DNA from: a virus
Taxonomy: Duplodnaviria; Heunggongvirae; Uroviricota; Caudoviricetes
Virus record (IMG/VR): IMGVR_UViG_2713896784_000029
Length of the DNA: 38,978 nucleotides
Strand: one strand, 5' to 3'
Shown: positions 6,209 to 38,606 of the stretch, piece after piece
Layout of the letters: each line of letters opens with the position of its first letter
Position numbering within the stretch: position 1 is the stretch's first letter
Program-made: the position numbers and the translations under genes
Notes under the pieces: model-generated
What the model was told of the DNA's origin: nothing
The model's database searches: none
What the model saw: only the letters and a program-made list of their open reading frames with translations

Positions 6209-6787
6209 ATGAGTATTAAATATCGTTATTTTAAAATGAATGAGCACGATTCCCGTCATTATCACCGGGAATGGCTTGATAGTGTTGGCAGGGAGCGCCA
6301 GAAATTGATTGATGATTTTCTCAGTAATCAGAATGCCAGAGGATATAGTTACTCCTGGTATTGTGGGGATTTTTTTGTCAAATCAATACTGGTGCATGAG
6401 GATGTTGATGTCGGAAGAAATAAACGGGTGTTGTCTGATAAATTTGATGAAGATGGCCGCGTTTTATTTTCAGTTAAGCCCGACCGCAGATTCAGAGAGG
6501 GAAAAAAACTGAACAAAGCACTGAATATCTTAAACGAGAAGTTAAAACAGCTTCCGTCATTCAGTACCTGGATGGTTAATAAACTGGACTGCTATTTTGA
6601 GGTTTTTGGTGTCAGCAACGGCCGCACAGTTATGGCGTGCTCTTCTGCCGGGTTCTATGGCGACAAAGGGGCTGTTGTGGTTCGTATTCCTGTCGGTGAA
6701 TCAGATAATGCCTTTTCACCTGAAAAGCTGCATCCGTCATTGATGGCAATCAAGCATTCCGAATTCATCGCAATAACGGAGGAATAA
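6209..6787 (+). CDS. hypothetical protein in AT-rich early insertion
   Basis: ORF in a visibly AT-rich stretch (about 6130-6560); ATG 6209 preferred (TGAGG RBS) over ORF-track start 6197. Confidence 0.45.
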   Translation: MSIKYRYFKMNEHDSRHYHREWLDSVGRERQKLIDDFLSNQNARGYSYSWYCGDFFVKSILVHEDVDVGRNKRVLSDKFDEDGRVLFSVKPDRRFREGKKLNKALNILNEKLKQLPSFSTWMVNKLDCYFEVFGVSNGRTVMACSSAGFYGDKGAVVVRIPVGESDNAFSPEKLHPSLMAIKHSEFIAITEE

Positions 6788-6790
6788 TTC

Positions 6791-7324
6791 ATGATTGATG
6801 CAAAAGTGCTTGAAGGGGTTAAAAACTGGCTGCGTATTTACGGACGTCTGACCTGCGGTGTTCTGGCTGAAAAAATGAATATGCCGCCATCCTCCATGGT
6901 TTATTTTCTGCGTGATGCGGTTGATGCAGGCGTGCTGACGGAATGTAACGGTTTTTATGATATTCCGCGTCCCCGCCCGGTGCAGCCGGTTCGTCGCAAA
7001 TGCAGCCAGGAATCTGCGGCTGATGATGTTCAGTGGTGCAGCTTCAGAAAATCCCTGCCGTGGATTGAAGGGCATGATATTCCGTCGATGGCGTGGGAAT
7101 TTGCTCAGGGCGTACTGACCTGCGAAACCGTTTATGTGGTGGCTGAAGTTGATGAGCAGGCCATGAAAGAAGGCGTGCCCCAGTTTGTGATGGCGTATAT
7201 CGACATCCGCCTGGGCGTCATTATCTGCGGTTTAAGCGGCTGGAATATCACCTCGCGCGTTCTGCGTTACCTGATTGTTGACCGGACGGCCGCGCCTGCC
7301 GGGATATCTGCGGAGGTGGCGTAA
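6791..7324 (+). CDS. hypothetical early protein
   Basis: 177-aa ORF tightly packed after previous gene; N-terminal 50 aa look like a winged-helix fold. Confidence 0.45.
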   Translation: MIDAKVLEGVKNWLRIYGRLTCGVLAEKMNMPPSSMVYFLRDAVDAGVLTECNGFYDIPRPRPVQPVRRKCSQESAADDVQWCSFRKSLPWIEGHDIPSMAWEFAQGVLTCETVYVVAEVDEQAMKEGVPQFVMAYIDIRLGVIICGLSGWNITSRVLRYLIVDRTAAPAGISAEVA

Positions 7325-7839
7325 TGTTCTTTAAAACATCAAACCCTTCCGCGCTGGCCGCGTGGCAAAAATATCAGCAGGACTGCCAGAAAGTTAAGGA
7401 TGAGGCAAAACGCCTTGAGGCCGTGCTGAATGTTGCGTGCCGATCGGTATTTGTATCCGGTATCAGTGGCTTTTGTTTTAAAGGGCTGCGCTTTATGGAT
7501 GACAAATATCCTTTTCATCGCGACTTATGGCGAAAACCGACTGCGTCGAATGGCTGGAGCTGCACACCGCGCACATCACGTATTCCCAAAGCCCTGCGCG
7601 TTGCCTCTGACGAACTTAACAGTCTGTGGCGTGAATATTCGCTCGTCACGTATGCCAGAACCGATGCCCTGTTGTTCTGGCTGGGCATTGACTTCTCAGC
7701 AATATTGCATGGTCCCGTGAAGTGGTTCTGCGTTGACGATGTGATTTATCTCCAGTGCGGCGTAAAACCCGCAAAACAGAGAATGACCGAAATTCTGCCT
7801 GATGAGTTTTATGCTGCCGAAAAGCGAGTCAGGGGGTGA
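7324..7839 (+). CDS. hypothetical early protein
   Basis: 171-aa ORF; start overlaps upstream stop. Confidence 0.45.
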   Translation: MFFKTSNPSALAAWQKYQQDCQKVKDEAKRLEAVLNVACRSVFVSGISGFCFKGLRFMDDKYPFHRDLWRKPTASNGWSCTPRTSRIPKALRVASDELNSLWREYSLVTYARTDALLFWLGIDFSAILHGPVKWFCVDDVIYLQCGVKPAKQRMTEILPDEFYAAEKRVRG

Positions 7840-33787: not shown

Positions 33788-34348
33788 ATGCTGATTGGCT
33801 ATATACGCGTATCAACAAATGACCAGAACACAGGTTTACAAAGAAATGCGCTGGAATGTGCAGGATGTGAGCAGATTTTTGAAGATAAAATGAGTGGTAA
33901 AACGACACAGCGGCCGGGACTGAAGCGGGCACTGAAGAAACTAAAACCCGGTGACACACTGATGGTCTGGAAACTGGACAGGCTGGGGCGCAGTATGCGC
34001 CACCTTGTTGCGCTGACAGATGAATTACAGCAACAGGGGATAAATTTTCGTAGTCTTACTGACAACATTGATACGTCAACCCCCATGGGGCGCTTCTTTT
34101 TTCACATAATGGGTGCGCTGGCAGAAATGGAGCGTGAATTAATTGTCGAACGGACACGGGCTGGTCTTGCAGCTGCCCGTGAAAGGGGACGAACCGGCGG
34201 CAGACCCCGTCGTCTCACGCAGGAACAATACGAGCAGGTCGGGCGTTTACTGGCCGGGGGTGTCAGTCGAAGACAGGTGGCACTTATTTTTGATATCGGC
34301 CTTTCAACCCTTTATCGTTATTATCCTGCGAGCGTTTCGGAAAAATAA
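33788..34348 (+). CDS. gin: serine recombinase, Gin/Hin/Pin/Cin-family DNA invertase
   Basis: 186 aa; MLIGYIRVSTNDQNTGLQRNAL... with catalytic Ser in RVST and C-terminal HTH (QVALIFDIGLSTLYRY); very close to Mu Gin as recalled. Confidence 0.9.
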   Translation: MLIGYIRVSTNDQNTGLQRNALECAGCEQIFEDKMSGKTTQRPGLKRALKKLKPGDTLMVWKLDRLGRSMRHLVALTDELQQQGINFRSLTDNIDTSTPMGRFFFHIMGALAEMERELIVERTRAGLAAARERGRTGGRPRRLTQEQYEQVGRLLAGGVSRRQVALIFDIGLSTLYRYYPASVSEK

Positions 34349-34447: not shown

Positions 34448-36487
34448 ATGACGTCCAAATGGGTTCAACTATCATCAATGCCCGGAAACTTTACTGTTAA
34501 AGTTTCCGGTGGTACAGCGGCATTTCTTGAGGCTCCCTTTCCTCCGGCCGAAACAAAAGGAGGAATGACATTTGCTGACTGTCTCATCAGTTTTAATACA
34601 CGGGATTGCCTGTGGGTAAGGCCAGTATCCGGTGATCCGAGTGTGGAAATTACCGGAGCGGGTATTGGTGCGGTCATTCCGTTAAGTGCTGATGTTGCCG
34701 GTACTGCTGAACCGTCAGACTGGGATAATGCTGAAACACATACCCGTCCGTCAGGAAATGAAACTGCTTCCAGCTCCCCTTCCTGGTATTACGTGGTGGT
34801 TCTTGCTGGTCAGTCAAACGGTATGGCTTACGGTGAAGGTCTGCCACTGCCGGAGACATATGACCGCCCCGAACCGCGTATTATGCAGTTAGCCCGTCGC
34901 AGTACAGTCACGCCGGGAGGTAAAGCCTGTCAGTATAACGACATCATTCTGGCCGACCACTGTCTGCATGATGTGCAGGATATGAGTGGAAAAAATCACC
35001 CGAAAGCGGATGTGGCTAAAGGGCAATATGGCACCGTGGGTCAGGGGCTTCACATTGCCAAAAAACTGCTGCCGTTTATTCCGGCAGATGCGGGGATTCT
35101 GCTGGTTCCCTGCTGCCGTGGTGGTTCTGCATTCACGGCGGGTGCTGACGGCACGTACAGTGACAGCACGGGTGCTTCAGAGGACTCAGCCCGCTGGGGT
35201 GTGGATAAGCCGCTGTATAAGGACTTAATCAGCCGGACAAAAGCGGCACTGGCGAAGAACCCGAAAAACCGCCTGCTTGCTGTGGTGTGGATGCAGGGCG
35301 AGTTTGATATTGATGCGAAGCCGACGGAGCATTCCGCGCTGTTTCTGGCGATGGTGGAAAAATTCCGCGCAGACCTGGCTGAACAGGCGGAACAGTGTAC
35401 CGGTGGCAGTGCTGCTGGCGTTCCGTGGATTTGTGGCGATACCACGTATTTCTGGAAACAGAAAAATGAACCGGCATACCAGGCAATCTATGGCGGCTAC
35501 AAAAACAAAACAGATAAAAACATTCATTTCGTTCCATTAATGACAGATGAAAATGACGCGAATGTACCCACCAACAATCCGGCAGAAGACCCGGATATTG
35601 AATCCATTGGTTATTACGGCTCAACGTGGCGTAACAGTGCCGCCACCTGGACATCTGCGGACCGGGCCAGCCATTTCAGTTCATGGGCACGTCGTGGGAT
35701 TATTTCCGACCGTCTGGCCACGGCAGTTCTGACTCATGCGGGGCGAACCACAGTAAAAGCCGATGTTCCATCTTCTGAAACTGAAGCACCAGTGCCGTCA
35801 CCTTCAGAAACTGAAGCAGTAACCACAACACTGCTGTCTTATCGTGTCAGTGAGTCAGAAGGAAATCTGAAAGCCCAGGGCTGGGAGCCGGCTGGCGGTA
35901 AAGCTGAAATTATCAGTGATGCAGGAGGCACAGGTGGTAAGGCAATGAAACTGACCAAGGAAACAGGTAAATCATCCTGGTATCTGGATCATGATGCCGG
36001 TACTGGTGCTGAACTGCTGAAAAATGGTGGTTTAATCAGTTGTCGTTTTAAAGTACCTGGCGACCTGGTGGCAAACCAGTATGTCATGGGGCTTTACTGG
36101 CCGGTTTCCTCTCTGCCGCAGGGTGTCACCCTGACAGGGGATGCAGGGAATAATCTGCTGGCATCGTTCTACATCCAGACAGACGCAAAAGACCTGAATG
36201 TGATGTACCACAATGCAAAAGTGGCAACAAATAACCAGAAACTGGGAACCTTTGGTGCATTTGATAATGAATGGCATACGCTGGCCTTCCGTTTTGCAGG
36301 AAATAACAGCCTTCAGGTTATTCCGGTTATTGATGGTCAGGATGGTGCCGCGTTTACCCTGACGCAGTCACCAGTAGGAACTTTCCCGGTGGACAAACTC
36401 CGCGTAACGGATATCACAAAAAATGCAACTTACCCGGTGCTGATTGACAGCATTGTGGTGGAAGTGAAAAAAGCGGTAACAGAATAA
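34448..36487 (+). CDS. cargo SASA/SGNH-type carbohydrate O-acetylesterase (prophage NanS-p-like) with C-terminal beta-rich domain
   Basis: 679 aa; VVVLAGQSNGMAYGEG (Ser motif) and VVWMQGEFD (WxQGE.D) match the sialate O-acetylesterase family signature; SETEA-SETEA linker then ~230-aa beta-rich domain; located between gin and com where Mu has no gene. Confidence 0.6.
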   Translation: MTSKWVQLSSMPGNFTVKVSGGTAAFLEAPFPPAETKGGMTFADCLISFNTRDCLWVRPVSGDPSVEITGAGIGAVIPLSADVAGTAEPSDWDNAETHTRPSGNETASSSPSWYYVVVLAGQSNGMAYGEGLPLPETYDRPEPRIMQLARRSTVTPGGKACQYNDIILADHCLHDVQDMSGKNHPKADVAKGQYGTVGQGLHIAKKLLPFIPADAGILLVPCCRGGSAFTAGADGTYSDSTGASEDSARWGVDKPLYKDLISRTKAALAKNPKNRLLAVVWMQGEFDIDAKPTEHSALFLAMVEKFRADLAEQAEQCTGGSAAGVPWICGDTTYFWKQKNEPAYQAIYGGYKNKTDKNIHFVPLMTDENDANVPTNNPAEDPDIESIGYYGSTWRNSAATWTSADRASHFSSWARRGIISDRLATAVLTHAGRTTVKADVPSSETEAPVPSPSETEAVTTTLLSYRVSESEGNLKAQGWEPAGGKAEIISDAGGTGGKAMKLTKETGKSSWYLDHDAGTGAELLKNGGLISCRFKVPGDLVANQYVMGLYWPVSSLPQGVTLTGDAGNNLLASFYIQTDAKDLNVMYHNAKVATNNQKLGTFGAFDNEWHTLAFRFAGNNSLQVIPVIDGQDGAAFTLTQSPVGTFPVDKLRVTDITKNATYPVLIDSIVVEVKKAVTE

Positions 36488-36493
36488 AAAAAT

Positions 36494-36520
36494 CCCGCCG
36501 GTCATGATATGGCTGGCGGG
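36494..36520. terminator. hairpin after esterase gene
   Basis: CCCGCC...GGCGGG stem with A-run upstream (T-run on the minus strand), 7 bp after the esterase stop. Confidence 0.35.
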
Positions 36521-36633
36521 AGCTACCTAACCCATAAAGGAAAATAAAAATACTCCCGAAGGAGTGGTTATCAGTCGCTTCGATGTTTTTACCCGATAAC
36601 GAATTATGTAGTCAATATCAAAGGTAAGGTTAT

Positions 36634-36816
36634 ATGACATTCGTTCATACAATGCTGCTTTATTTCTGCGCTGTGGTCAGTGCGTTATATCTGGTGAGCG
36701 GTGGTTATAAGGTCATCAGAAATTATATTCGCCGTAAAATTGATGATGCGGCAGCTGAAAAACTCAGTAAAACAGCACAGGCACCGTCATCCCCAAACGA
36801 CCCGACCCCGCTCTGA
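36634..36816 (+). CDS. small membrane protein (single N-terminal TM)
   Basis: 60 aa; TM LLYFCAVVSALYLVSGGY followed by charged tail; AAGGT RBS. Confidence 0.35.
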   Translation: MTFVHTMLLYFCAVVSALYLVSGGYKVIRNYIRRKIDDAAAEKLSKTAQAPSSPNDPTPL

Positions 36817-36851
36817 TAACGGGGCAATATACCTGCAAAAGGAGAATATTC

Positions 36852-37097
36852 ATGCCAGAGATTAAAGGCACGGTTACTGAAGAGCTTGTCAAACAGGCAC
36901 TTTATTCTGAAGAAGTGAACCGCGTGCTGAAGGCGCAGGTTCGCAAGGATTTTGAGGCACAAATCGACGCATATGTTGATGAAGTGCTGGCCCGAATGGT
37001 TGGCCGTTCTCCGGCTGAAAACAGCACGGAAAATGATCCTCAACCCGTAGAGCAACCAGAGCCGGTTCAGCCCGGAACTGACGGTACTATGATGTAA
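36852..37097 (+). CDS. small acidic hypothetical protein
   Basis: 81 aa with strong RBS AAAAGGAGAA; followed by a terminator hairpin. Confidence 0.4.
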   Translation: MPEIKGTVTEELVKQALYSEEVNRVLKAQVRKDFEAQIDAYVDEVLARMVGRSPAENSTENDPQPVEQPEPVQPGTDGTMM

Positions 37098-37106
37098 CAA
37101 TACCGA

Positions 37107-37140
37107 CCGGCAGGTTTCCCTGCCGGGTGAGTTTGTTAAT
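37107..37140 (+). terminator. intrinsic terminator after small cargo ORF
   Basis: CCGGCAGG-TTTC-CCTGCCGG perfect 8-bp stem followed by GTGAGTTTGTT. Confidence 0.5.
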
Positions 37141-37415
37141 GCACGTTTTGTGTATTTTCCCTCCTGGGAGAACAGGCAGGACATATCAGCATCCTGAAAC
37201 AGGAAGCATTTTTGGGTTTGTATGTCTTGCCATTTTGAGATCGAGAACGGCGATAGATGAGCTGTAAGGGAGTCTTACAGGCAGGGCAAACAGGCTCTTT
37301 CATCCATGATAAAGATCTCCTTTTTATGCATCTCTGCTTTACAGGAGACCGGGGAATATCATAGGATACGCCACGAGCTCGAAGTAAAGCATTGATGCAA
37401 GTTTTTACAGATTGA

Positions 37416-37454
37416 CCCAGCATAGTTCCAGCTATGCTGGGTTTCACTTTTATG
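37416..37454 (+). terminator. strong intrinsic terminator inside the 0.57-kb noncoding stretch
   Basis: CCCAGCATAG-TTCCAG-CTATGCTGGG 10-bp stem followed by TTTCACTTTTAT; no annotated plus-strand ORF ends nearby. Confidence 0.55.
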
Positions 37455-37640
37455 TAGTATCCTGTTGATTTGAAACATACTACATATACGCGTGATCCTA
37501 CCTTCACTGTATAAAAAGTCAATAAAATGATCATTTTATGATCGTTTTCACCACCTAACTCTTCGTTTTCTTTAAGTAAATAATCACCTCCCTGAATCAT
37601 TGTTGATGACTTTTCAATCTATTTGTTGTATCAATTAAAC

Positions 37641-37670
37641 AAATCGAATCGATCGTTTTTGTCGATCGAT
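37641..37670. promoter_or_regulatory. mom-operon regulatory palindrome with two GATC (Dam) sites
   Basis: AATCGATCG-TTTTTGT-CGATCGATT inverted repeat about 45-75 bp upstream of com; GATC at 37651-37654 and 37664-37667. Confidence 0.5.
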
Positions 37671-37714
37671 TGCATGAGAAAGGCATCAACAACAAAGCAG
37701 GAGGTTATGCGGTC

Positions 37715-37915
37715 ATGTATCGAAACATACGGTGCCGACACTGCAATAAGCTACTGGCACGGGCCAGTTTCAGTTATCTGGAAGTAAAATGTCCGCGCTG
37801 TAAAACCCTCAATCAAATCACATCTCCGAGCGCCACAGAGCACCCCACATACACAAGGAAATCCTGTCGTGGGGAACAGAAAGCAAGTCACATCCCGAAT
37901 CATCAGCACGCCTGA
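37715..37915 (+). CDS. com: Com zinc-finger translational activator of mom
   Basis: [30 protein letters not shown] parallels Mu Com (IRCKNCNKLL...IRCPRCK); ORF overlaps the mom start as in Mu. Confidence 0.8.
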
Positions 37916-38606
37916 ACTTATTCGCTATAACGACAATATCGTTGGTTATGGCTCCCGTGAGTTGCGGGTTGAGACAATAAGTTGCTGGCTGGCCAGACTG
38001 GTCATCGTCAATAAACATTACAGCCACCGTTTCGTAAATAACTCCTACCTTCATCTGGGCATATTTTCAGAACGGGAACTTGTTGGCGTAATGCAATGGG
38101 GTTACGCCCTTAACCCAAACAGTGGTGCACGCGTCGTAACGGGTACGCAGAACCGAGAATATATGGAGCTTAACCGGCTATGGCTGCATGACTGTATGCC
38201 GAGAAACTCCGAATCAAGGGCAATCAGTTACGCGCTCAAGCTAATCAGGCAGCTTTATCCGCAGGTACAGTGGGTTCAGTCGTTTGCAGATGAGCGTTGT
38301 GGCTGTCTTGGTGTCGTGTATCAGGCAAGCAATTTTGATTATGTAGGCAGCCATGAATCAATATTCTATGAACTTGATGGCGAGTGGTATCACGAGATTT
38401 GCAGGAATGCCATTAAACGAGGCGGACAACGAGGTGAACATCTGAGGGCTAATATTGACAGAGCCAGTGTTCATAAGTTCCGACAGTTTCGTTACATCCG
38501 GTTTCTGAACAAGAGGGCCAGAAAACGCCTCAACACAAAGCTATTCAAAGTCCAGCCTTACCCAAAACCACAAACAGTTAAAACTGGTTTGAAAGAGAGT
38601 GAATGA
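37869..38606 (+). CDS. mom: Mom DNA-modification protein
   Basis: 245-aa ORF immediately downstream of and overlapping com, last gene before the right end, as in Mu; exact start uncertain. Confidence 0.7.

Follow-up and report, generated by a model that had tools for sequence, protein, structure and literature searches.

The DNA studied here (the window: IMG/VR virus record IMGVR_UViG_2713896784_000029, 38,978 nucleotides, nt) is a Mu-like prophage, whose segment 36480-37700 is 100% identical to prophage Sp18 of Escherichia coli O157:H7 Sakai, annotated "Mu-like phage", and to many other enterohaemorrhagic E. coli (EHEC) chromosomes. The block that separates its NanS-p-like esterase gene from the com and mom genes is probably made of two back-to-back units that join at one hairpin, hereafter hairpin 1. 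On the plus strand, the genes for a DUF1378 and a DUF826 protein would close a three-gene cassette opened by the esterase. On the minus strand, a separate leftward unit would stand head-to-head with com-mom: a promoter at 37522-37495 would start an RNA near 37488, its leader of about 180 nt would fold into three stem-loops (SL1 to SL3, SL2 being the same element as hairpin 2), a strong Shine-Dalgarno sequence (SD) and a start codon would follow, both within conserved pairings, a basic zinc-ribbon protein of 55-57 amino acids (aa) would be encoded, and the RNA would end at hairpin 1. A preliminary description of this block, made from its letters, had reported two small open reading frames (ORFs), two plus-strand terminators and a possible small RNA (sRNA) between them; it was accurate in what it observed and partly supported in what it concluded, the strand being wrong and one gene being missed. 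It is more likely that the block resolves into ordinary parts, namely two proteins of known families, a small gene that has been misannotated and stands behind a conserved folded leader, and a terminator common to both units.

The search for a gene on the minus strand meets a RefSeq annotation that is almost certainly wrong, according to which 37136-37600 encodes one hypothetical protein of 154 aa (ECs_4996). This frame is uninterrupted in the window and in the 100%-identical genomes, and its protein cluster (P0001) counts 205 member sequences. However, RefSeq itself records a frameshift in it for variants of 94-96% identity, it shifts frame at two places in other variants, no SD precedes its ATG at 37600, three RNA stems as well as a promoter would lie within it, no homologue among 1.84 billion representative proteins covers both of its halves, and none of such length exists in the Salmonella relatives. 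We rejected it as a real protein. It arises from a 1-nt insertion: the O157-type copies have in common one additional C, at position 37301 of the plus strand. Copies devoid of this C encode MDKEPVCPAC..., and the ancestral form, common in E. coli, is a 56-aa protein (MDKEPVCPAC...CPACSP..., isoelectric point, pI, about 10) with AAGGAGA located 8 nt ahead of its ATG. The insertion throws this SD-linked ATG (37307) out of frame, makes a new in-frame ATG 4 nt downstream (37303) from which a 55-aa protein starting with MKEPVCPAC... is read, and joins the zinc-ribbon frame to the upstream sequence, which yields the annotated 154-aa ORF. The correction concerns hundreds of EHEC genomes, where the "hypothetical" protein would give way to a promoter followed by a leader and by a zinc-ribbon gene of 55-57 aa, mostly overlooked by gene callers.

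The exhaustive phmmer/HMMER search of the same 1.84 billion representative proteins retrieved P0036, 53 aa long and from Salmonella enterica, whose match to the 154-aa ORF is confined to residues 103-149, corresponding to the C-terminal CPxC...CPxC segment. Together, the word-indexed and exhaustive HMMER searches returned only E. coli copies plus one Salmonella cluster, and of 5.8 billion proteins only five clusters belong to the family, every one of E. coli or Salmonella origin. No homologue emerged when one genome per species was scanned with a degenerate pattern, and tblastn against phages returned only two records of a Mu-like phage in a Shiga toxin (Stx) phage, plus noise. In the zinc-ribbon frame, the ratio of nonsynonymous to synonymous differences per site (pN/pS) ranges from 0 to 0.44, pS being ~0.75 when the E. 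coli group is compared with the Salmonella group, and these substitutions look like those of a coding sequence; the proteins of the window and of the Salmonella relatives are ~47% identical. The product is hydrophilic and basic (grand average of hydropathy -0.83, pI 9.98), and may bind nucleic acid. We considered whether it might be a homologue of Com (PF10122) and discarded this possibility, as no hit was obtained at E values up to 5, while hhalign gave a probability of 15% over 17 columns against the Com of the window. Two Mu-like prophages have the P0036 gene facing com head-to-head, with ~390 nt between the two. In the loci L025 and L026 it is followed by more small ORFs on the same strand (three and two, respectively) and then by tail-fibre genes, while in L037 the zinc-ribbon gene is alone, as in the window.

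The promoter of the leftward unit is predicted from its hexamers, which read TTGACT-16-TAGGAT in the window, TTGACT-16-TAAGAT at the homologous position of L025, and TTGACG-16-TATAAT (11/12 matches) at the homologous site of L037, where the upstream sequence is otherwise unrelated. Counting as conserved a promoter whose hexamers lie 16-18 nt apart at the homologous position while spacer or flanks have changed, we found sigma-70 hexamers at 16-nt spacing kept in three lineages despite altered spacers and flanks, the activity itself being a prediction.

Read on the minus strand, the leader (37488-37308) folds with -64 kcal/mol (z = -5.9). The stem of SL1 (96.9% paired) is retained in the Salmonella relatives with a variable loop. 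That of SL2 persists in alleles such as CCCAGCATAG/CTATGCTGGG, GGTCCAGATAG/CTATCTGGACC, CCCGGTAG/CTACCGGG and CCCGGCAG/CTGCCGGG. Helices 3 and 4 of SL3 are 97% and 94% paired; in three pairs both partners have changed, and one U.G is invariant. The block around the translation start is invariant in the E. coli and Salmonella relatives, and its hairpin is 100% paired in eight sequences, including U.G pairs that fit the minus strand only. GGUCUCC (37350-37344) is a possible anti-SD with GGAGAUC as its potential partner, and this pairing belongs to the minimum-free-energy fold in L037 and L038. The RNAalifold consensus of eight distinct leaders comprises 56 pairs with 95.5% of cells paired; eight pairs have changed on both sides, a level reached in 0 of 500 shuffles, and controls in which the sequences were slid pair 34-50% of cells. 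Compensatory and wobble changes are in excess of both the shuffled and the slid controls, as is characteristic of a conserved structured RNA, and this holds for the minus strand. Counts of standard pairs on the minus versus the plus strand are 93 versus 84 of 96 for SL1, 207 versus 193 of 216 for SL3 and 48 versus 44 of 48 for the start hairpin, and G.U pairs favour the minus strand for all three. At the DNA level, the leader is ~80% identical between the window and the Salmonella loci, while the protein is at the ~47% given above and pS at ~0.75. The noncoding leader is thus kept better than the neighbouring synonymous sites, which indicates a function.

These results bear on the proposal that the ~300 nt between the two hairpins could hold a small-RNA or leader transcript. 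A leader it is in kind, on the opposite strand to the one proposed and as part of a probable leftward unit with a zinc-ribbon gene that had been missed. The remark that no plus-strand ORF feeds hairpin 2 was correct, none of at least 36 aa lying within 37141-37415, and the only plus-strand ORF entering this interval (46 aa) starts at 37127. No further copy of the leader occurs in the window. A 17-nt leader motif gave 29 hits in species-representative genomes, all in unrelated taxa and, given the size of the database, presumably chance matches. The SL2 unit (ACTACATAAAG, hairpin, GCATCAATGC) is tandemly duplicated in L006, L017, L019 and L023 (equivalent of 37380-37460) as well as in L035 and L037; the two copies often differ in hairpin allele, which suggests unequal recombination between alleles.

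Hairpin 1, at which the two units would meet, is CCGGCAGG-TTTC-CCTGCCGG (37107-37126, -22.8 kcal/mol with its flanks). It folds better than shuffled sequence on the plus strand (z = -3.3, 0/200 shuffles as good) and on the minus strand (z = -4.75). The T-tract that follows is weak on the plus strand (GTGAGTTTGTTAAT) and on the minus strand too: neither has the at least five T within 8 nt after the stem by which we defined an intrinsic terminator, and the terminator scan was silent on both. Of the "clean terminator" placed at 37107-37140 by the preliminary description, the stem therefore stands, and the tract is weak. The inverted repeat around the stem extends to both stop codons, the TAA of the DUF826 gene (37095-37097) and that of the zinc-ribbon gene (37138-37136). 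Since hairpin 1 lies between two convergent stops, it is likely the end of both genes and would be a shared two-way terminator. A Salmonella relative has a canonical terminator directly after its zinc-ribbon gene (L025, 8169-8191). The features of the region are collected in Table 1.

Table 1. Features between the esterase gene and com-mom, by position in the window.
Feature	Position	Strand	Description and evidence
NanS-p-like esterase	34448..36487	+	679 aa; SASA and DUF6645 domains (Pfam PF20350 2.4e-69, PF03629 6.5e-12)
Small-RNA candidate, probably EcOnc37	36485..36615	-	Convergent to the esterase; promoter-like blocks, hairpins, published Hfq-CRAC
DUF1378 protein	36634..36816	+	60 aa; single N-terminal hydrophobic helix, basic tail; PF07125 1.2e-38
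DUF826 protein	36852..37097	+	81 aa; acidic; AAGGAG SD; PF05696 2.8e-15
Inverted repeat I4 with hairpin 1	37095..37138	both	20-nt inverted repeat; GC-rich stem 37107-37126
Small zinc-ribbon gene	37136..37307 (start 37303/37307)	-	55-57 aa; phmmer homologue P0036, substitution pattern
Translation-start region	37296..37350	-	SD AAGGAGA 37322-37316; start codon in the loop of a CUUUAUC/GAUAAAG hairpin
SL3	37327..37399	-	Long imperfect hairpin ending just before the SD; inverted repeat I6, RNAalifold, pair counts
Promoter-like TTTACA-N18-TAGGAT	37338..37367	+	Kept in relatives; both hexamers in paired SL3 segments
SL2 (hairpin 2)	37414..37443	-	Stem kept in at least 6 sequence alleles; 4/11 pairs changed on both sides
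SL1	37451..37486	-	UAUGUAGUAU, 16-nt loop, AUACUACAUA; inverted repeat I9; just after the predicted start
Sigma-70-like promoter TTGACT-16-TAGGAT	37495..37522	-	Promoter scan; predicted start near 37487-37489
Mu backbone resumption	37644..37915	+	GATC cluster 37644-37672; com 37715-37915; mom 37869-38606; com overlaps mom

The left half of the block had been described as unexplained cargo. It is cargo, being absent from the 95-nt gap of phage Mu, and its two proteins belong to known families, as the homology searches called for by the preliminary description revealed. The 60-aa ORF downstream of the esterase, correctly reported as a single-transmembrane protein, matches the DUF1378 model PF07125 over positions 1-59 of 59 with 131.5 bits for a cutoff of 25, and phrog_494 with an E value of 3.5e-34; its hydrophobic N-terminal segment has a top 19-residue Kyte-Doolittle mean of 2.02, at residue 3. 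The 81-aa ORF, which is acidic (pI 4.3) and has the strong ribosome-binding site ascribed to it (AAGGAG, 7 nt ahead of the ATG), matches the DUF826 model PF05696 over positions 1-54 of 75 with 56.7 bits (cutoff 25), and phrog_311 with an E value of 6.6e-30.

The esterase gene is the first of the three-gene cargo cassette, and the whole finds its counterpart in lambdoid phages. In Stx2a phages, DUF826 and DUF1378 ORFs have been reported between nanS-p and S (PMC10462455), and in lambdoid Stx/EHEC prophages the nanS-p, DUF1378 and DUF826 genes, located between Q or stx and the holin gene S, are of the same families, in the same order and in the same orientation. The lambdoid phage PhiR12_2 has the order Q, 660-aa esterase, 60-aa ORF, 96-aa ORF and holin S, and its segment 1159-3791 (L039) matches window 34448-37097 in adjacency, strand and order, with identities of 55% for the esterase, 54% for the DUF1378 protein and 45% for the DUF826 protein. 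At the DNA level, no similarity to lambdoid phages was found for the small-ORF region or the gap, any such similarity being below blastn detection. Both cassettes have a minus-oriented terminator right after the esterase stop. They differ in that the one studied here lies between the gin and mom genes of a Mu-like phage, outside a Q-antiterminated late operon, and has no holin gene downstream. From these sequence comparisons, the trio appears to be a portable unit moving between unrelated phage types: a cassette that stands just ahead of the holin gene in a lambdoid late operon would have been placed here between gin and mom. The inheritance shared with the esterase suggests a linked role for both small proteins, and the fact that the three move together argues for small proteins working with the esterase.

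The leftward unit invites comparison with the com-mom control region of Mu. In both, a promoter faces the mom operon head-to-head, GATC sites lie in or around the promoters, and a small zinc-binding protein is encoded beside an mRNA in which structure covers the start site; the zinc-ribbon protein is, however, not a Com homologue, and Mu itself lacks the whole module. A divergent promoter, momP2, is known in the mom region of Mu (PMC3378877). It differs from the leftward promoter, which lies ~120 nt beyond the GATC cluster without overlapping the mom promoter, and which is predicted to drive a real small gene. Five GATC (Dam) sites occur within 170 bp (37494, 37529, 37540, 37651 and 37664). 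One of them is inside the leftward -10 (TAGGATC; TAAGATC in the Salmonella relatives), and two are just upstream of the -35. By analogy with the neighbouring mom promoter, methylation may affect the leftward promoter. Modelled likewise on Com, which opens a stem-loop that blocks the translation of mom, we tentatively propose that the leader might block translation by masking the SD and AUG until a factor or condition opens it. The orphan zinc-ribbon protein and its leader are, as far as we found, undescribed, and of modest interest; the leftward unit offers a concrete and testable element beside the heavily studied mom control region, and does not overturn ideas on Mu-like phages.

Several points weigh against the reading of the right half as a leftward unit. 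The unit would be transcribed from a predicted promoter, and the ends of its RNA are predictions too. The covariation statistics are generous, since the eight leader sequences come from two clades and the structure was derived from the same sequences. SL2 is neutral as to strand, or slightly better on the plus strand (78 minus versus 81 plus of 86 pairs), and in the window it has a real T-tract, so that it may also act as a plus-strand terminator. The zinc-ribbon protein has no Pfam or PHROG match above threshold, only generic zinc-ribbon matches below it, and no solved fold, its AlphaFold model (predicted local distance difference test score 80) having no match in the PDB better than E = 2. 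Several copies of the gene carry damage: the +1 insertion at codon 3 in the window, a replacement of Cys7 by Tyr in L010/L032, one frameshift in L038 and two in P0002. These lesions point to selection that is weak or intermittent. Finally, prophages of the L005 type keep the promoter and the leader (to 37328) and lack the zinc-ribbon gene.

In L005 (3074-3480) and L006 (3113-3700), different DNA is substituted for window 37071-37327. The L005-type DNA contains an unannotated 68-aa minus-strand ORF, also starting ATGGATAAA, for which no clear homologues were found in Pfam or PHROGs, and an annotated 66-aa plus-strand ORF that has no match in the phage collection. As far as this comparison of loci goes, the leader may serve whichever gene stands behind it. 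Conservation is higher in the leader than in the gene that follows, the start site is enclosed in structure and the -10 contains a Dam site. One could imagine, as a speculation that we regard as rather unlikely, that the leader is an undescribed cis-regulatory RNA of Mu-like prophages, a conserved "expression socket" near mom, which would hide the SD and start of the plugged-in gene and be opened by a signal from phage or host or countered by an internal antisense RNA. Were the antisense case true, the zinc-ribbon gene could encode a type I toxin of a new, non-membrane kind.

Other explanations of the right half turn largely on hairpin 2, the "second very strong terminator" of the preliminary description. 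The hairpin is real in the window, where it has 13 pairs followed by TCACTTTTAT on the plus strand, is reported by the terminator scan and folds with z = -4.7 (0/200 shuffles as good). Its identity as a terminator fits the allele of the window alone: the hairpin is more likely SL2 of the leader, and its plus-strand T-tract is present only in that allele, the others reading CTCCCTTTATG; the same scan does not call it in L025 or L037, the relatives keeping the stem and losing the tract. An antisense RNA of ~80 nt, running on the plus strand from ~37374 to hairpin 2 (~37454), fully complementary to the 5' part of the leader and controlling the zinc-ribbon gene, is unlikely, and it could coexist with the leftward unit. 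The one feature supporting an antisense small RNA is the TTTACA-N18-TAGGAT sequence, found where the preliminary description had called for promoter prediction (37141-37415) and matched by a counterpart at the equivalent position of both L025 and L037. Its conservation is ambiguous: both hexamers are in paired arms of SL3, so that it is already explained, and the -10 and the 18-nt spacer are poor. Hairpin 2 is called as a terminator in the window, the pairs of SL2 are slightly better on the plus strand and an 85-nt plus-strand RNA folds with z = -3.8, while the tract is missing in the other alleles. No match to the region is found in Rfam, which gives 0 matches in the whole window at the gathering threshold; in an E-value search of 36400-37800, the best sub-threshold match is tsr24, with 18.9 bits for a gathering threshold of 50. 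Nor is a peak listed here for Sakai in the supplementary tables of a study that mapped Hfq-bound RNA by cross-linking and analysis of cDNA (Hfq-CRAC; PMC4104026), which hold no 5078xxx coordinate and no ECs4995-4997 intergenic entry, the only Sp18 entry being EcOnc37.

Like many toxin genes, the small gene is strongly occluded and has frequently suffered mutations, which would be in keeping with antisense control. Such an RNA would come closest to the antisense RNAs of type I toxin-antitoxin systems and to sar of phage P22. The type I loci hok/sok, zorO/orzO and ralR/ralA likewise have a tiny ORF behind a long structured leader that hides the SD and AUG; here, a conserved promoter-like site lies on the opposite strand inside the leader and the ORF is often inactivated. 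The likeness is one of layout, compared in sequence only, and the protein is unlike the classic membrane toxins of type I systems in being hydrophilic and basic and in its richness in cysteine.

It is quite improbable that hairpin 2, perhaps together with hairpin 1, is chiefly a plus-strand stop that keeps transcription of gin and the cargo from running on into the toxic com-mom. The expression of mom is cytotoxic and guarded at many levels in Mu (PMC3378877), the weak T-tract of hairpin 1 makes a back-up terminator sensible, hairpin 2 is called as a terminator in the window, and an inverted repeat (37591-37613 / 37679-37701) could also mask the SD of com in a read-through RNA. Against this stand the lack of the T-tract in most hairpin alleles and the lack of such a terminator between gin and the mom promoter in Mu, and the conservation of SL1, SL3, the promoter and the SD region would be left unexplained. 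Like the antisense RNA, a read-through stop is compatible with the existence of the leftward unit. There is very little probability that the right half is instead a functionless, decaying remnant whose hairpins come from an older gene arrangement. Several independent lesions of the zinc-ribbon gene, the gene content downstream that varies between loci and the tandem duplications of the SL2 unit at some loci are what decay would leave. The noncoding leader, however, outdoes the adjacent synonymous sites in conservation between E. coli and Salmonella, its pairings survive through compensatory changes, and the promoter hexamers persist while their surroundings change.

Outside the gap between the two hairpins, a small-RNA candidate lies on the minus strand just after the esterase and convergent to it. 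A promoter-like arrangement, TTGACT (36615-36610), an 18-nt spacer and TAAAAA (36591-36586), precedes a CUCC-UUCG-GGAG hairpin with a U-rich tail (36565-36552), reported by the terminator scan, and a terminator hairpin found by folding (36520-36494, then U7 at 36493-36485) that overlaps the esterase stop codon. The A-run with its GC hairpin and the TTGAC/TAAAAA blocks are kept in the lambdoid PhiR12_2, in L005 and in L006. The gap between ECs4993 and ECs4994 ranks 57 among Hfq-bound intergenic regions (Tree et al. 2014, Table S1B; PMC4104026), and the same study lists EcOnc37 in Sp18, on the minus strand, with a predicted Rho-independent terminator and in 5/5 data sets (Table S2), giving neither a Northern result nor a homologue. 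Its coordinates are those of the older Sakai record; by the names of the flanking genes, EcOnc37 is probably at ~36487-36580 on the minus strand. It has no Rfam family match. It is the only published sRNA in this block, and lies outside the 37141-37454 gap; it was obtained by Hfq-CRAC from this very prophage, unlike anything in that gap. On the minus strand, terminator-ended and convergent to a cargo gene, the candidate resembles AsxR, AgvB and the EcOnc series, which are convergent Hfq-binding sRNAs at prophage moron sites. In the literature search, no main-text mention of ECs4993-ECs4997 was found; the HnrS paper names Sp18 solely because the prophage had excised, and a preprint on the Pas sRNA proved unrelated to the locus.

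The block as a whole is an addition to the Mu plan. RefSeq gives the order at the right end as recombinase (gin), DUF6645, DUF1378, DUF826, the minus-strand 154-aa hypothetical protein, Com and Mom, the last two matching Zn_ribbon_Com (3.2e-12) and Mom (4e-77) in Pfam. In Mu, gin and com are only 95 nt apart, while here ~3.3 kb separates gin (33788-34348) from the GATC cluster of the mom promoter, which an alignment with the gin-com DNA of Mu places at 37644-37672. The DNA from gin to ~37630 is thus extra with respect to Mu. The preliminary description rightly called the block AT-rich, the GC fraction being 0.38-0.40 at 37200-37800 versus 0.50-0.61 in the tail-gene backbone. Terminator-like sites are dense in 36300-37900, the scan reporting 9 versus 1.6 +/- 1.3 in shuffles.

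The inverted repeat at 37591-37613 / 37679-37701 (23 nt, 78% complementary) flanks the GATC cluster of the mom promoter, and its right arm overlies the SD of com. By its position, an RNA reading through from upstream could fold over this SD, and an RNA begun at the mom promoter could not. In the Salmonella Mu-like prophage L025, a 350-aa C5 DNA methylase (PF00145) follows com (6398-7610) and Mom is absent, while Mom is present in the sister locus L026; this looks like an exchange of the DNA-modification gene under the same Com control. The only records of the phage collection that match the region are LC727881.1 (37062-38283) and LC727895.1 (42823-44044), Stx1a- and Stx2c-converting phages in which the Mu-like copy is annotated as inserted within the Stx prophage. 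In E. coli O103 RM8385 (L001, 5390-6126), mom is annotated as frameshifted in an otherwise identical prophage.

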